Source: an uncultured Pelagibacteraceae bacterium | GTDB lineage: Bacteria > Pseudomonadota > Alphaproteobacteria > Pelagibacterales > Pelagibacteraceae | Direction: 5' to 3' | NCBI GenBank assembly: GCA_902612325.1 | Contig: CACMDB010000002.1 | Coordinates: forward strand, 154,893-218,892 | DNA: 64,000 nt | Shown here: positions 1 through 8,716 of the stretch, in pieces | Position numbering within the stretch: the first letter of the stretch is position 1 | How the letters are laid out: the number at the start of each line of letters is the position of its first letter | Position numbers and translations under genes: made by a program | Notes under the pieces: model-generated | What the model was told of the DNA's origin: nothing | The model's input: the letters and a program-made list of their open reading frames with translations, nothing else | Databases searched by the model: none

Positions 1-1
1 A

Positions 2-184
2 GCATTATATTCAATTGCTCACGACAATATGTTTGGAACCAAGATTAAATCAACGGAAATTTTAATGTGCACACCAAATTTAATATTCCAAAAGTTTGAA
101 TTTAAAGACCAGGAGTTTGAAAAATTGAAAAAGGAAGCAATGAACAGAGTAGAGCAATATTACAATTTAAAAAGAAGGAATTGA
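2..184 (+). CDS. C-terminal fragment of a phage-type PD-(D/E)XK (Cas4/MGME1-like) exonuclease; 5' end outside window
   Basis: Not in the ORF track. Frame 2 reads ALYSIAHDNMFGTKIKSTEILMCTPNLIFQKFEFKDQEFEKLKKEAMNRVEQYYNLKRRN*, resembling the 'AY.xAH..xGT.I..G.ILMC...L..Q.F' tail of marine phage exonucleases. Family recognised from memory. Confidence 0.55.
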   Translation, partial: ALYSIAHDNMFGTKIKSTEILMCTPNLIFQKFEFKDQEFEKLKKEAMNRVEQYYNLKRRN

Positions 185-187
185 AAA

Positions 188-1633
188 TTATAAATAGTTT
201 TCATGCTCGAATGCTAGTTTCTCTAAATGGGAGTTGATTGTTTCAACTTTTTCTAAAACTTCTTTATCATCTTTTTTTTCCTCTCTTAAAACATCAATAC
301 GCGCCATGCCCTCAGGTATAGTTGGAAAAACCTCTTTATTAGTGGAAAGCAATCTACGACTTATATTTTTTCGAACTTTTTTATATTCTTCATTACTATC
401 AAAACCGTCTTTACCCCACTTATCTAGTAAGACCATTTCTGATAAATGTTTAAGTGGACCATTAAATCTTTTGTGAATTTTTTTCTGCTCATCTTTGTTA
501 TTAGTCATAACAAAATTATTCATTAATGATTTGTCATTTGATGTTGGATTTAGATTAAATATCATTTGTTCAGGTATTAGCTCGGTTTGATCAATTGAAT
601 TATCTTCAAACTGGTCACTGATGATTAAACTCACCCTATTAGCTAATTCTTTTCTATTTTTGATTATAAAATCTGCTCTCTTTTTAAGTACTTCGTGTCC
701 TAAAGTGGAGTATTCATCATCAAATTTAGTCGCAAAAGATTTATCTTGAATGAATGGATTCTTTCCAATTTTAATAGTCCTATATTTCTTAGGAGCAGCA
801 GAAAGTGTTTTTTTTAATACAGTATTCGATTTTTCAGAAAAAATTAACTCTGGATCATGTTTCAAGTCAAATACAAGATGATAGCCTTTATAAATTGGGT
901 GCTCACACAAATATGTTGATGTAAATTGTCTAGTACGACTATAGAACGTTTCTGGGTGACAAAAATAATCAGTATTTTCTATTTTACTTAAAACATCTTT
1001 CTTATTTGTAAAACTAAGTGATTGCCTAAATAAATTTGGATCTTTTTTCTTCAGTAAGTTCATTAAACTTACTAAACCCTCAGTATCTCCTTTTGAACTA
1101 TGTAAATCCTTTATTTCAAATCCATTAGCTTTTGCAAGTGATCCGAGACGATAAACTTTGTTATTTTTTTCATTTAATTCAAATGAAATTTTATTTGGTG
1201 CATAAAAATCAAAGTTTTGAACTATCGGAAGAGAGTCCAATTGTCTAGCATTACCGGTAGAAAAAATCCATGGCCAGGTAAATAAATTTGAAAATAAATG
1301 CTGACTTGTAAGCATATAATCAAAATTATATCCATTATGCGCACAAAAGAACACATCACCTTTATTTATCCAAGAGATAAATTTTTCATTTGTTTGTTTT
1401 GTTAAGTCAAAATTTGTATTAGACCATTTATCCATTTCAAATGGATCTATTCCATTGACTAAAAAACTGTCAACCTCATACACTCTTGATTTTCTTAATT
1501 TTGCTTTACAACTAAACTCATCCAATTTTTTAAAGTTATAATCATAGAAAATAGCATCGATCGTCAATATATCTGCCAAACCTCTTCCACCACTAGTTTC
1601 TGTATCAAAAAATATAAAATTCGGTTTTGACAT
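188..1633 (-). CDS. sbcB: Exodeoxyribonuclease I (DEDDh 3'-5' ssDNA exonuclease)
   Basis: ExoI FFDTETSG, ExoII AHNGYNFD, ExoIII LHSSKGD; later HP...FDL and K.GKNP segments and the 481-aa length match ExoI architecture. Confidence 0.85.
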   Translation of the reverse strand: MSKPNFIFFDTETSGGRGLADILTIDAIFYDYNFKKLDEFSCKAKLRKSRVYEVDSFLVNGIDPFEMDKWSNTNFDLTKQTNEKFISWINKGDVFFCAHNGYNFDYMLTSQHLFSNLFTWPWIFSTGNARQLDSLPIVQNFDFYAPNKISFELNEKNNKVYRLGSLAKANGFEIKDLHSSKGDTEGLVSLMNLLKKKDPNLFRQSLSFTNKKDVLSKIENTDYFCHPETFYSRTRQFTSTYLCEHPIYKGYHLVFDLKHDPELIFSEKSNTVLKKTLSAAPKKYRTIKIGKNPFIQDKSFATKFDDEYSTLGHEVLKKRADFIIKNRKELANRVSLIISDQFEDNSIDQTELIPEQMIFNLNPTSNDKSLMNNFVMTNNKDEQKKIHKRFNGPLKHLSEMVLLDKWGKDGFDSNEEYKKVRKNISRRLLSTNKEVFPTIPEGMARIDVLREEKKDDKEVLEKVETINSHLEKLAFEHENYL

Positions 1634-7800: not shown

Positions 7801-8222
7801 TTGAGGAGTTTGAAATTATAAAAAAAATTATGGACCAAGTCATGGGCTGCAAGTTTATTGATTTTGATAAAACTGAGAGGAAAATAAGTATAGATGACAT
7901 TTTAATCGTAAGCCCTTTTAATGCTCAGGTAAATTTTTTGAAAGCAAGATTAAATAAAGGAGCTCGATGTGGGACAATAGATAAATTTCAAGGAATGGAA
8001 GCACCTATAACAATTATAAGTATGACAAGTTCTTCAGTCGATGATCTCCCAAGAAATAAAAAATTTTTCTTTAATCGAAATCGACTTAATGTTGCAATCT
8101 CAAGAGCCCAATGTTCATCAGTTATTTTGCTTAACCCAAAATTATTAGAGTCAGTACCTAATGATTATGAGGAACTTAAGTTAATGAATTATTTTCAAAA
8201 ATTAATGAAATATGCAGCATAA
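4863..8222 (+). CDS. TM0106-family RecB-like nuclease / RNase H-like domain / SF1 (DNA2/NAM7-like) helicase fusion
   Basis: GELDFL...IIDTK...HIYQISLY (PD-(D/E)XK); PGDLFFDLEG, IYHYAPYE, YNKQDC (RNase H-like); QGPPGSGKT, VDEASQ, LVGDQQQL, TIDKFQG, RLNVAISRA (SF1). Start ATG 4863, or TTG 4860. Confidence 0.9.
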   Translation: MDKNFYSPTMLVNYINLKHFITDEFGDEILNLKKSDRTIAENLRLERGLIHEKEYFKELSKKYKKIKNIKKLKDLSKEEKIKETIQALKNGYELVYGGWLASGNWRGELDFLEINKTVKSNFGDWSYEIIDTKNSSKIKKDHIYQISLYSYLLKEAQGILPKNFYILLKDKRKEIIMLSEVYDIFLKQKLSFENFAKNDLNRKKLEKVSYCSLRDLQEFCEKEWIKKKHLNQVLGNNKNNIKRLNEAGIKNFDELSKLDPKKKIEGLKDETKIKLINQAKLQVNAHAEGVIKFEFIEENFVLNKGFNLLPEPAPGDLFFDLEGVQDYVYSGRLEYLFGIFYQENEKKVFKPFWAHSREEEKQSLIKFFEFTKAHFKKYPKAKIYHYAPYEITALERLTSIHKVHGVDYDHYLNLGKFVDLFRVVKQGIYVSQKSYSIKDIEKYYDFKRTGEILKGDVSEEFYIQWMLNNDKRLLDKIEDYNKQDCESTFRLRKWLLRIKPKQTKWFIPEKEKIELRPFEENLLEFQEKFENFKSKHNKISKLLSDVIGFYNREQKPQWRQHFDRKDLSDSDLMDDKECIGNMKLASVFQDKRSLVYKYIFPEQEYKLKEGRTCIIANNTDPERSDYAGKIQELDQIKRSLLLRKGISKEDKRLPKILSIGEKVMEHARFENLNKNIYRFCDNVLEKKDGYNAIKDFINREIPKIKGIKKGEKIIKTEKYDDEIPKIILNLQNSYLYLQGPPGSGKTFQASNAIIELLKNNKKIAVTANSHKVIHNLLERVENLANNQNYVFKGLKMGNPDNEDTFYNGNLIKTDKNEKHFIDGLKENKILLYAGTKYHLSQWYYQNKLDYLFVDEASQISVADLIALGGIAKNIVLVGDQQQLGQPTQGSHPNDSGKSVLDYLLEDSDTISPDKGIFLNKTFRLHPNINLFTSENFYENRLLVNENNINRKIEYKKNSIIKNEGIHTVLMKHQDRSQTSIEEFEIIKKIMDQVMGCKFIDFDKTERKISIDDILIVSPFNAQVNFLKARLNKGARCGTIDKFQGMEAPITIISMTSSSVDDLPRNKKFFFNRNRLNVAISRAQCSSVILLNPKLLESVPNDYEELKLMNYFQKLMKYAA

Positions 8223-8251
8223 TTATATAAGATAACCCAAGGATTTTATTG

Positions 8252-8716
8252 ATGGATAAAGACAAATATAAACTTGGAAAAACACGAGAAGAGAAACCAG
8301 AGGGTTACTTAAGTAGTGAAGAATTGTTTGATTTTTTTCAAAAAAAAAAAATTTTTATTAAAAGAAAAGATAATTTGCCCAGATTTTGTGATCAGCACAA
8401 TATACAAATGATAAAGTTTAAAAGAGAAGGTAGTGGAGGCACAACACCTACAGCATATAGAATTCCTTCAGACACGAAGATAAATCAAATTAAACAAAAA
8501 CTAATGTTTAATAATAATAGTATTTTGGGATTAGAACTAATTAAAAAAAAAGAAAATAAAATACTTCAGATTTTCGATGAAGCTAAAAATCAACAAGAAT
8601 CAAAATCTTCTATTGCTGATAAAGTTGCAGAAGTTTTAGGAGTTCCCTGTAATAGAAAATTAGTTCGAAGAGTCTTGAATCAAAAAAGATCCACTAAATT
8701 AGATAAGTTAAAATAA
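8252..8716 (+). CDS. Hypothetical basic protein, possibly DNA-binding (two HTH-like segments)
   Basis: AAGGA SD; YLSSEELFDFF.. (Xis/MerR-like) and SIADKVAEVLGVPCNRKLVRRVL (winged-HTH-like). Confidence 0.65.
   Translation: MDKDKYKLGKTREEKPEGYLSSEELFDFFQKKKIFIKRKDNLPRFCDQHNIQMIKFKREGSGGTTPTAYRIPSDTKINQIKQKLMFNNNSILGLELIKKKENKILQIFDEAKNQQESKSSIADKVAEVLGVPCNRKLVRRVLNQKRSTKLDKLK

Follow-up and report, generated by a model that had tools for sequence, protein, structure and literature searches.

A candidate DNA-end-processing gene cluster of SAR11 bacteria with a CI-like regulator that has lost its protease residues and a structured leader RNA

The gene cluster described here has its closest described counterparts in exonuclease I (ExoI, SbcB) of Escherichia coli, the RmuC (YigN) family, the AddB/Dna2 nuclease-helicase fusions, the accessory proteins of UG/Abi reverse transcriptases that PADLOC holds as RTasRmuC and RTasSbcB and, for its regulator, the LexA, lambda CI and UmuD proteins. 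Phage 186 CI is a further structural counterpart of the regulator: its C-terminal domain serves oligomerisation, and the repressor is inactivated by an antirepressor and not by self-cleavage. SAR11 genomes, in which the cluster is found, are extremely streamlined, with few regulators and very high recombination rates. In the current study, we analysed positions 1-8716 of a 64,000-nucleotide stretch of DNA (about 28% GC) from an uncultured Pelagibacteraceae bacterium (contig CACMDB010000002.1, positions 154,893 to 218,892; the window), where genes for a PD-(D/E)XK exonuclease, SbcB, an S24/CI-like regulator, RmuC and a TM0106-family nuclease-helicase lie side by side. An earlier, sequence-only reading had seen in them a group of nucleases and a helicase wired to a phage-style repressor switch, and hence a candidate undescribed defence or DNA-processing module. 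The interpretation that we favour, with a probability of roughly 0.55, is that of a vertically inherited SAR11 DNA-end-processing cluster to which this lineage has added a CI-like regulator that cannot be cleaved, a leader RNA of its own and, in some genomes, the TM0106 protein.

Gene content and chromosomal position

Using the window's RmuC as a query against species-representative genomes, we recovered 10 Pelagibacteraceae single-cell or metagenome-assembled genomes (L001-L010), and an alignment of SbcB proteins used against metagenomes gave 52 loci. The order exonuclease-sbcB-S24-hyp100-hyp124-rmuC, followed after a variable interval by trx-folC-accD-trpA, is kept in 10 of the 10 genomes. 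In each informative metagenome locus sbcB has the S24-like gene immediately upstream, hyp100 is divergent from that gene in all 33 of the metagenome loci that reach that far, and the cluster always sits between hisG and trx-folC in genomes and metagenomes alike, across lineages whose SbcB proteins are 47-78% identical. Linkage at this one chromosomal site argues for vertical inheritance of a functional cluster rather than for a mobile system. The genes are thus linked and not scattered, as the sequence-only reading had supposed, with the S24-sbcB pair, the divergent hyp100 and the adjacency of RmuC to its small partner gene kept in the informative loci; the recurrent linkage at unrelated sites by which it had hoped to recognise a system was not seen.

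The sequence upstream of the window was read in genome AG-903-F09 (L001), whose proteins are 99-100% identical to those of the window across the region of interest, the adjacent thioredoxin being only 66% identical, so that the window stems from a close relative of that cell. No prophage was found there; the exonuclease gene is preceded instead by hisD (3' end), infA, hisS, hisZ and hisG and by a gene for a 167-residue unknown protein. On the other side the cluster is followed by trx, folC, accD and trpA. Integrase, capsid, terminase and methyltransferase genes are lacking from 1-8716, as had been reported from the sequence (CRISPR arrays aside), from the 6.3 kb upstream in L001 and from the downstream side. 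Across both intervals there is neither a recombinase nor any structural or packaging gene, nor does the site vary, as a prophage or integrative element would lead one to expect. A prophage can therefore be ruled out.

Several genomes hold the cluster without the regulator. The published gene order of HTCC1062 (SAR11_ numbers) runs 0478 hisS, 0479 hisZ, 0480 hisG, 0481 'DNA recombination protein', 0482 conserved hypothetical, 0483 exodeoxyribonuclease I, 0484 thioredoxin and 0485 folC (PMC12753301), and SAR11_0483, the orthologue of the window's SbcB, is annotated there as sbcB / exodeoxyribonuclease I. This order, hisG-rmuC-hypothetical-sbcB-trx, indicates that the same slot holds RmuC and SbcB without an S24 gene. 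Likewise, a single-cell genome (L070) has hisG, exonuclease, sbcB, hyp114, RmuC, TM0106 and trx, all co-directional, and in the isolate HIMB1587 (L064) this core precedes genes for GrpE-like, Hsp70-like and PDZ/TerB proteins, an M48 peptidase and a 1074-residue protein, and then hyp155 and trx. Because the S24-less genomes keep exonuclease, SbcB and RmuC together, the cluster is independent of the CI-like gene. It comes close to being the universal SAR11 core that the sequence-only reading had named as an outcome speaking against it, since HTCC1062, L070 and HIMB1587 carry RmuC and SbcB in the same slot, lacking the S24 gene.

L070 and L064 carry a second RmuC type (RmuC-B; 351 residues, 26% identical to the window's), which is also found behind S24 and hyp100 in L019-L024 and L030-L033. 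The two types alternate at the same site, and RmuC is always preceded by a small partner gene. The gene in front of RmuC-B (hyp114, hyp128, hyp130 or hyp145) is a distant relative of hyp124, the link running through L054_179, and both families end in TIQ or TIH. The stable units of the cluster are thus exonuclease with SbcB, partner with RmuC, and S24 with leader and hyp100, and the variable units are TM0106, hyp155 and an Hsp70-type extension. In a distant lineage with 48% identical SbcB (L054, 5692-10497; also L055), the S24-like protein has 518 residues, and behind sbcB come a gene for 94 residues and one for a Pif1-like superfamily 1 (SF1) helicase, a second and different helicase recruited to the cluster.

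The genes that the sequence-only reading had named were found where it placed them, on the evidence of an open reading frame map and of Pfam, NCBIfam, PHROGs and PADLOC scans. The window begins with the last 60 codons of a 235-residue, phage-type PD-(D/E)XK exonuclease gene (2..184, plus strand), convergent with sbcB. The complete gene in L001 (5817-6524) matches Pfam PDDEXK_1 (1.5e-7) and phrog_298, 'exonuclease' (2.4e-41); it adjoins sbcB in nearly all related loci. The ExoI-like SbcB (188..1633, minus strand), a predicted DEDDh 3'-5' exonuclease encoded by the second gene of the leftward operon, matches Pfam Exonuc_X-T_C (4e-7; 29.8 against a cutoff of 27 for this C-terminal domain) and, over its full length, the NCBIfam ExoI model at 79.8 bits. 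With some 80 bits against an equivalog cutoff of 260, it represents a divergent, SAR11-specific branch. Residues D10, E12, D105, H178 and D183 are invariant in nine orthologues and presumably line up with the DEDDh active site of E. coli ExoI.

On the plus strand, RmuC (3661..4848) matches Pfam RmuC (PF02646) at 1.7e-49 (168.9 bits, cutoff 26) over residues 69-362 and has an N-terminal hydrophobic helix, a coiled coil and a restriction-endonuclease-like domain; against the NCBIfam equivalog for E. coli RmuC it scores 102 bits, below the cutoff of 810. Directly upstream of it lies hyp124 (3273..3647, plus strand), a small helical partner protein with 312 homologues, all in SAR11, whose AlphaFold 2 model has three helices at a mean confidence (pLDDT) of 57, too poor for a fold search. 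The first gene of the operon, hyp100 (2969..3271, plus strand), encodes a small protein with one hydrophobic segment and no match in Pfam, NCBIfam, PHROGs or a lenient Pfam scan; it is found together with the S24 gene and the hairpin described below in every case, also in loci of the RmuC-B type. TM0106 (4860..8222, plus strand) follows RmuC, and hyp155 (8249..8716, plus strand) is the last gene before trx. This small protein had no match in Pfam, PADLOC, NCBIfam, PHROGs or a lenient Pfam scan; its orthologues occur in L001-L006, L064 (58%) and L054 (44%), and it is absent from L007-L010 and others. The S24 gene and sbcB overlap by one base, and the gaps between hyp100, hyp124, rmuC, TM0106 and hyp155 are 1, 13, 11 and 26 nt, which makes two divergent operons around a CI-like gene, as first read from the sequence, a fair description.

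The genes that follow the cluster diverge in a mosaic manner. Between the window (8814-12129) and L001-L010, folC is 29-95%, accD 39-96%, trpA 30-99% and trx 28-78% identical, each gene varying independently, as if whole alleles had been replaced.

Regulator, candidate operators and leader RNA

The regulator (1633..2772, minus strand; 379 residues) has a Peptidase_S24 domain (PF00717, 2.3e-8) at residues 229-325 and belongs to a marine SAR11 family of 129 database clusters, 365-395 residues long and at least 47% identical. In an AlphaFold 2 model (pLDDT 72), helices at 11-68 are followed by a disordered linker, a second helical stretch (96-203) and a beta domain (213-339). Foldseek matched the beta domain to LexA, phage 186 CI, the C-terminal domain of Mycobacterium tuberculosis LexA (TM-score 0.72 on the target) and that of lambda CI. 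We aligned the SAR11 family with 16 phage CI-like domains, taken from a scan of viral contigs (IMG/VR), and E. coli LexA. In 17 of these 17 comparators the column of N253 holds the catalytic Ser (GDSM) and that of R295 the Lys (VKRL), whereas in a 27-member alignment of the SAR11 family N253 is conserved to 90% or more and R295 without exception; the Ala-Gly cleavage loop of the comparators, SAG(P/A)G, is replaced by a 16-column gap. The regulator therefore keeps the S24 fold (residues ~205-340) but is, by its sequence, catalytically dead, and no autoproteolysis is expected. With Ser, Lys and cleavage loop all gone, induction cannot proceed by RecA-stimulated self-cleavage, and the phage-style repressor switch of the sequence-only reading falls away in this respect. 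Of the S24 and helix-turn-helix (HTH) architecture that it had assumed, the S24 domain stands, minus its catalytic residues, and the HTH found no Pfam support in the N-terminal 207 residues; by eye, residues at about 25-48 resemble a Cro/CI-like HTH.

The family also ends in a nearly invariant KKEIA (window 1633-1650; 27 members), after some 35 disordered and variable residues, which suggests a degron or docking peptide. Full-length homologues were absent from phage genomes and IMG/VR contigs, which held only distant relatives of the C-terminal domain; the S24 domain has its nearest neighbours in a phage CI subfamily, with which it has the motifs ISDNKxY and G(K/E)V(I/V)W in common. Sequence searches of the PDB yielded nothing useful, whether the query was the S24 profile or the isolated S24 domain, and hhalign of the family against E. 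coli LexA gave a low-probability alignment. Canonical lexA, recA and umuDC genes have been described in SAR11, lexA of HTCC1062 being SAR11_0921 (PMC12753301; PMC2864753). We considered the regulator as the LexA of SAR11 and rejected this, HTCC1062 having a separate lexA/recA/umuDC set and no S24 gene in the slot.

Alignment of the S24|hyp100 intergenic regions of 10 loci revealed three conserved blocks. One is a perfect 17-bp palindrome, CACTTTACAAAAAAGTG (2827..2843), here called candidate operator O1, which overlaps the -35 of the rightward promoter. Other S24-carrying loci have TACTGTTGACAACAGTA (most lineages) or TACTTGACNTTACAGTA (others) in the same place. The palindrome occurs once in the 64-kb window, essentially at this site only in 531 kb of related loci, and in none of the S24-less loci. 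A weaker palindrome read from the sequence, TACTTTTTTATGAAGCG (2785..2801), is candidate operator O2, its centre 42 bp from O1. Better O2 palindromes, TACTTTATATA[C/G/A]AAGTA, lie at the same 42-bp offset on the S24 side in L005, L008, L031, L032, L053 and L057. Equivalents of the two palindromes occur in L002-L059; their half-sites vary by lineage (CACTTT, TACTGT or TACTTG), each still palindromic. Four helical turns apart and with one of them on a -35, the two sites resemble a cooperative operator pair of the CI type.

The promoter-like site for hyp100-hyp124-rmuC-TM0106-hyp155 is TTTACA-17-TATATT (2830..2858, plus strand; 10/12 in a consensus scan). Since matches in a generic promoter and terminator scan were not enriched over shuffled sequence, the promoter assignments are based on cross-species conservation: in the alignment of the 10 loci, TTGACA and TATATA stand out as conserved blocks. 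Additionally, among metatranscriptome contigs placed on window positions 1-5030, contigs start at 2883-2886.

Between promoter and hyp100 lies a structured 5' leader with a long hairpin (2876..2953, plus strand). RNAalifold, applied to a MAFFT alignment of 12 copies, found 16 pairs, eight of them with compensatory double changes, and single leader sequences fold 2.3-6.8 standard deviations better than shuffles. A covariance model gave 49 matches at E<=0.01, one of them in the window, all directly upstream of hyp100 and in sense, and no match in S24-less loci; seven loci (L005, L006, L034, L036, L037, L038 and L041) carry tandem duplicates. Among 45 distinct leader sequences 93.9% of cells are paired and 11 of the 16 pairs show double changes, a count biased by the fitting of this alignment to the model, although the independent MAFFT alignment gave the same pattern; when partner columns were slid by 1-3 positions, pairing was at most 53%. 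Frequent G-U pairs on the plus strand place the RNA in the sense orientation of the operon. No Rfam family matched the leader at gathering or lenient thresholds. It is thus an undescribed structured RNA, exclusive to the S24/hyp100 pair (L002-L060 also).

The unpaired, CU-rich loop of about 23-29 nt holds one or two CCUUUCU boxes. In the window the loop sequence CUCCUUUCU is identical to the 3' end of its own 16S rRNA (...ACCTCCTTTCT), and the boxes look like a mimic of the anti-Shine-Dalgarno sequence. Duplex energies between the loop and the translation-initiation region of hyp100 were no better than those of shuffled loops (mean z -0.3). The RNA may act by sequestration of a Shine-Dalgarno sequence, by attenuation or by protein binding. 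Metatranscriptome contigs cover 2562-2755, within the S24 gene, and one contig of 1,085 nt runs from 2886 through hyp100 and hyp124 into rmuC, indicating that leader and operon are transcribed in the sea.

TM0106, variable cargo and competing explanations

The TM0106-family protein (1120 residues) joins a TIGR03491 nuclease (1.7e-69; 234.9 bits against a cutoff of 97.45) to an RNaseH-like domain (RNase_H_2, 2e-26) and an SF1 helicase (AAA_11/AAA_12; AAA_12 at 2e-23). In 16 homologues, down to 52% identity, the PD-(D/E)XK residues E109/D111, D132-T-K134 and Q146..Y150, the DEDD-like D321-x-E323 and D485, and the Walker A and B motifs (GPPGxGKT at 740-747, DE at 855-856) are invariant. It is present in three of the ten syntenic genomes (L001-L003), in metagenome loci L012, L016 and L052 (after rmuC) and in L064 and L070, and absent from at least 17 otherwise syntenic loci, including at least 10 metagenome loci in which the junction is covered. 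Homologues occur widely in Pelagibacter, in two contexts. Those at least 67% identical to the window's protein are encoded immediately behind rmuC in the hisG-trx slot, whether S24 is present or not. Those of a sister clade (clade B, 52-53% identical) lie in islands with a resolvase and/or a tyrosine integrase (L066, 10001-17436; L068, 5784-15860; L069, 7243-15542), at sites that differ: close to groES in HIMB1746, immediately behind hisG in L068, and in L069 between nadA and thyX. D12 and/or N6_N4 DNA methyltransferases adjoin TM0106 in these three islands; in L068 and L069 they follow it immediately and on its strand. This pairing is the best hint of a restriction-like role. A 53% identical copy lies upstream of the exonuclease gene in L048. 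Phage genomes and IMG/VR contigs held no relatives, and a full-text literature search for TM0106 returned unrelated corrosion papers and no functional study. TM0106 is the one truly accessory, mobile-looking component.

In the interpretation that we favour, the core would consist of the PD-(D/E)XK exonuclease, the ExoI-like exonuclease and a membrane-anchored RmuC with its small helical partner, inherited vertically at one site. Between sbcB and the RmuC pair, the lineage of the window would have gained an insert of a dead-protease CI/LexA-fold factor, a leader RNA and the small membrane protein hyp100, splitting the cluster into two divergent operons. Regulator dimers would bind the two 17-bp palindromes 42 bp apart, O1 lying on the rightward -35, and so repress hyp100-hyp124-rmuC-TM0106-hyp155 and probably also the regulator's own S24-sbcB operon. 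Induction would take another route than self-cleavage, through an antirepressor, a ligand or proteolysis by way of the KKEIA tail, and the leader hairpin would add a second, post-transcriptional layer of control. The TM0106 nuclease-helicase would be a passenger that a minority of genomes have gained behind rmuC. The cluster most likely serves to process DNA ends and recombination intermediates in a regulated manner, either as a housekeeping task or in response to stress; it may also degrade foreign DNA as a side activity.

Several observations weigh against this interpretation. The nuclease roles are read from family membership, and SbcB and RmuC fall short of the NCBIfam equivalog cutoffs. 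Residues 1-207 of the regulator gave no HTH match in Pfam even at E<=10, and its probable binding to the two palindromes is deduced from their strict co-occurrence with the S24 gene. The scans are pattern-based and favour close relatives, so the locus counts are not prevalence across all SAR11. Furthermore, the cargo of the rightward operon varies among TM0106, GrpE-like/Hsp70-like proteins, M48 and TerB, a pattern typical of defence loci; and the stretch from hisG to the exonuclease gene, in L001 no more than 164 bp without a gene, holds MzaC (1.8e-173) in L037 (8165-11071) and PbeA (2.1e-80) beside a DndB-like gene in HIMB1587 (L064, 1-3786). Finally, sbcB is listed among the host genes differentially expressed in pelagiphage-infected HTCC1062.

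The last three of these points would suit an inducible defence against phage or foreign DNA, in which regulator, hyp100 and leader sense infection and de-repress RmuC and TM0106, these two degrade phage DNA, and ExoI and the PD-(D/E)XK exonuclease finish the fragments. Variable effectors would then stand behind a constant regulator. An integrase island occupies the hisG-exonuclease interval in L068, so the cluster abuts a cargo hotspot, which keeps the defence reading alive without turning the conserved core into a defence system; UG2 defence reverse transcriptases have RmuC-like accessory proteins, and clade-B TM0106 forms operons with DNA methyltransferases in recombinase islands, much like restriction-modification. 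We nevertheless consider this explanation unlikely. The core genes are inherited vertically at a fixed position despite 47-78% SbcB identity, TM0106 is missing from most syntenic genomes, and neither a cognate methyltransferase nor an immunity partner for it lies within 1-8716. Scanned against PADLOC-DB v2, the window genes gave generic, family-level matches only (RTasRmuC, 1.9e-41; RTasSbcB, 4.5e-28; the helicase part of MkoA/MkoC), and the full component set of a described anti-phage system, with a reverse transcriptase or partner genes, was not found in the locus by PADLOC. The undescribed defence module of the sequence-only reading accordingly found no backing among known systems. The GrpE-like and Hsp70-like genes follow the RmuC-B pair in L033 (551-4489) and L064 (8535-23005); neither they nor the PDZ/TerB, M48 and 1074-residue proteins of L064 have a PADLOC match. 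A bolder form, in which regulator, anti-Shine-Dalgarno-mimic hairpin and hyp100 make up a new sensor of infection or damage, gating a cassette site whose effectors degrade DNA (RmuC-A or RmuC-B with partner, TM0106, Hsp70/GrpE-like modules), is doubtful, and we rank it just behind the plain defence explanation. If it is true, the most abundant bacterium of the ocean would carry, fixed in its chromosome, a defence locus that swaps its cargo, and the TM0106-helicase would be a restriction-like effector not recognised before.

Less probable again is a domesticated remnant of the early or recombination region of an ancient prophage, with CI-like repressor, Cro-like small gene and exonuclease co-opted by the host. 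The exonuclease family is overwhelmingly phage-borne: tblastn gave 767 phage records with a relative, most of them from cyanophages, and Pelagibacter phage HTVC023P also has one, at 38%; the S24 domain is nearest a phage CI subfamily, and a repressor divergent from a small gene across two operators resembles a phage immunity region. SbcB and RmuC, however, are cellular families that stay with the exonuclease in S24-less genomes; phage genomes and IMG/VR contigs offered no full-length homologue of S24 and no homologue of TM0106, and integrase, att-like repeats and structural genes are absent. The least likely account denies any functional coupling: unrelated DNA-metabolism genes would have piled up next to an insertion hotspot, and the S24-like protein would regulate itself or nothing. 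The changing gene content between hisG and trx, the coming and going of TM0106 and hyp155, and promoter-like matches no commoner than in shuffled sequence would fit it, whereas the overlapping or nearly abutting coding frames point to co-transcription, a single metatranscriptome contig spans leader, hyp100, hyp124 and the start of rmuC, and the S24-sbcB, hyp100-hairpin and partner-RmuC adjacencies are strict down to about 47-50% identity.

A vertically inherited end-processing cluster explains the clustering with no need of a "defence island". That a dedicated regulator, a private cis-acting RNA and three to four nucleases are kept at one site suggests a form of DNA-end processing that SAR11 cannot do without. 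The locus has a regulator from a family of CI-like repressors that have abandoned self-cleavage, and a new structured leader RNA with a loop that repeats the 3' end of 16S rRNA; the TM0106 nuclease-helicase offers a natural presence/absence polymorphism and elsewhere in SAR11 travels with DNA methyltransferases.

Elsewhere in the window, an rRNA operon (45049-49666) has the order 16S-tRNAIle-tRNAAla-23S with no 5S gene after it. The DNA past it (50000-62000) has 21-27% GC and looks like the SAR11 hypervariable region HVR2.

Comparison with described systems

Like E. coli ExoI, the window's SbcB matches the ExoI model over its full length together with the C-terminal domain and has the acidic and His residues; unlike in E. 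coli, its gene is translationally coupled to that of a regulator. RmuC shares with the RmuC (YigN) family the PF02646 domain, the N-terminal hydrophobic helix and the coiled coil described for the family, but in SAR11 it always stands behind a gene for a small helical partner and comes in two types that are 26% identical. Both proteins match the RTasRmuC and RTasSbcB hidden Markov models of PADLOC at the family level; no reverse transcriptase is present here, and the matches reflect general homology to RmuC and ExoI. TM0106 combines a Cas4-like PD-(D/E)XK nuclease with an SF1 (Upf1/Dna2-like) helicase, as AddB/Dna2 fusions do, and differs from them in having an additional RNaseH-like (DEDD-type) domain and in being accessory in SAR11.

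The regulator has in common with LexA, lambda CI and UmuD the C-terminal fold, a gene divergent from an operon and palindromic sites on the promoter. It departs from them in the exchange of Ser for Asn and of Lys for Arg, in the loss of the Ala-Gly loop, in an N-terminal region of about 200 residues without a recognised HTH, and in its occurrence in a group that has a canonical LexA besides. Phage 186 CI (PDB 2fjr) is its second-best structural match; the likeness seen is one of structure, and the setting of the SAR11 regulator is chromosomal and not that of a prophage.

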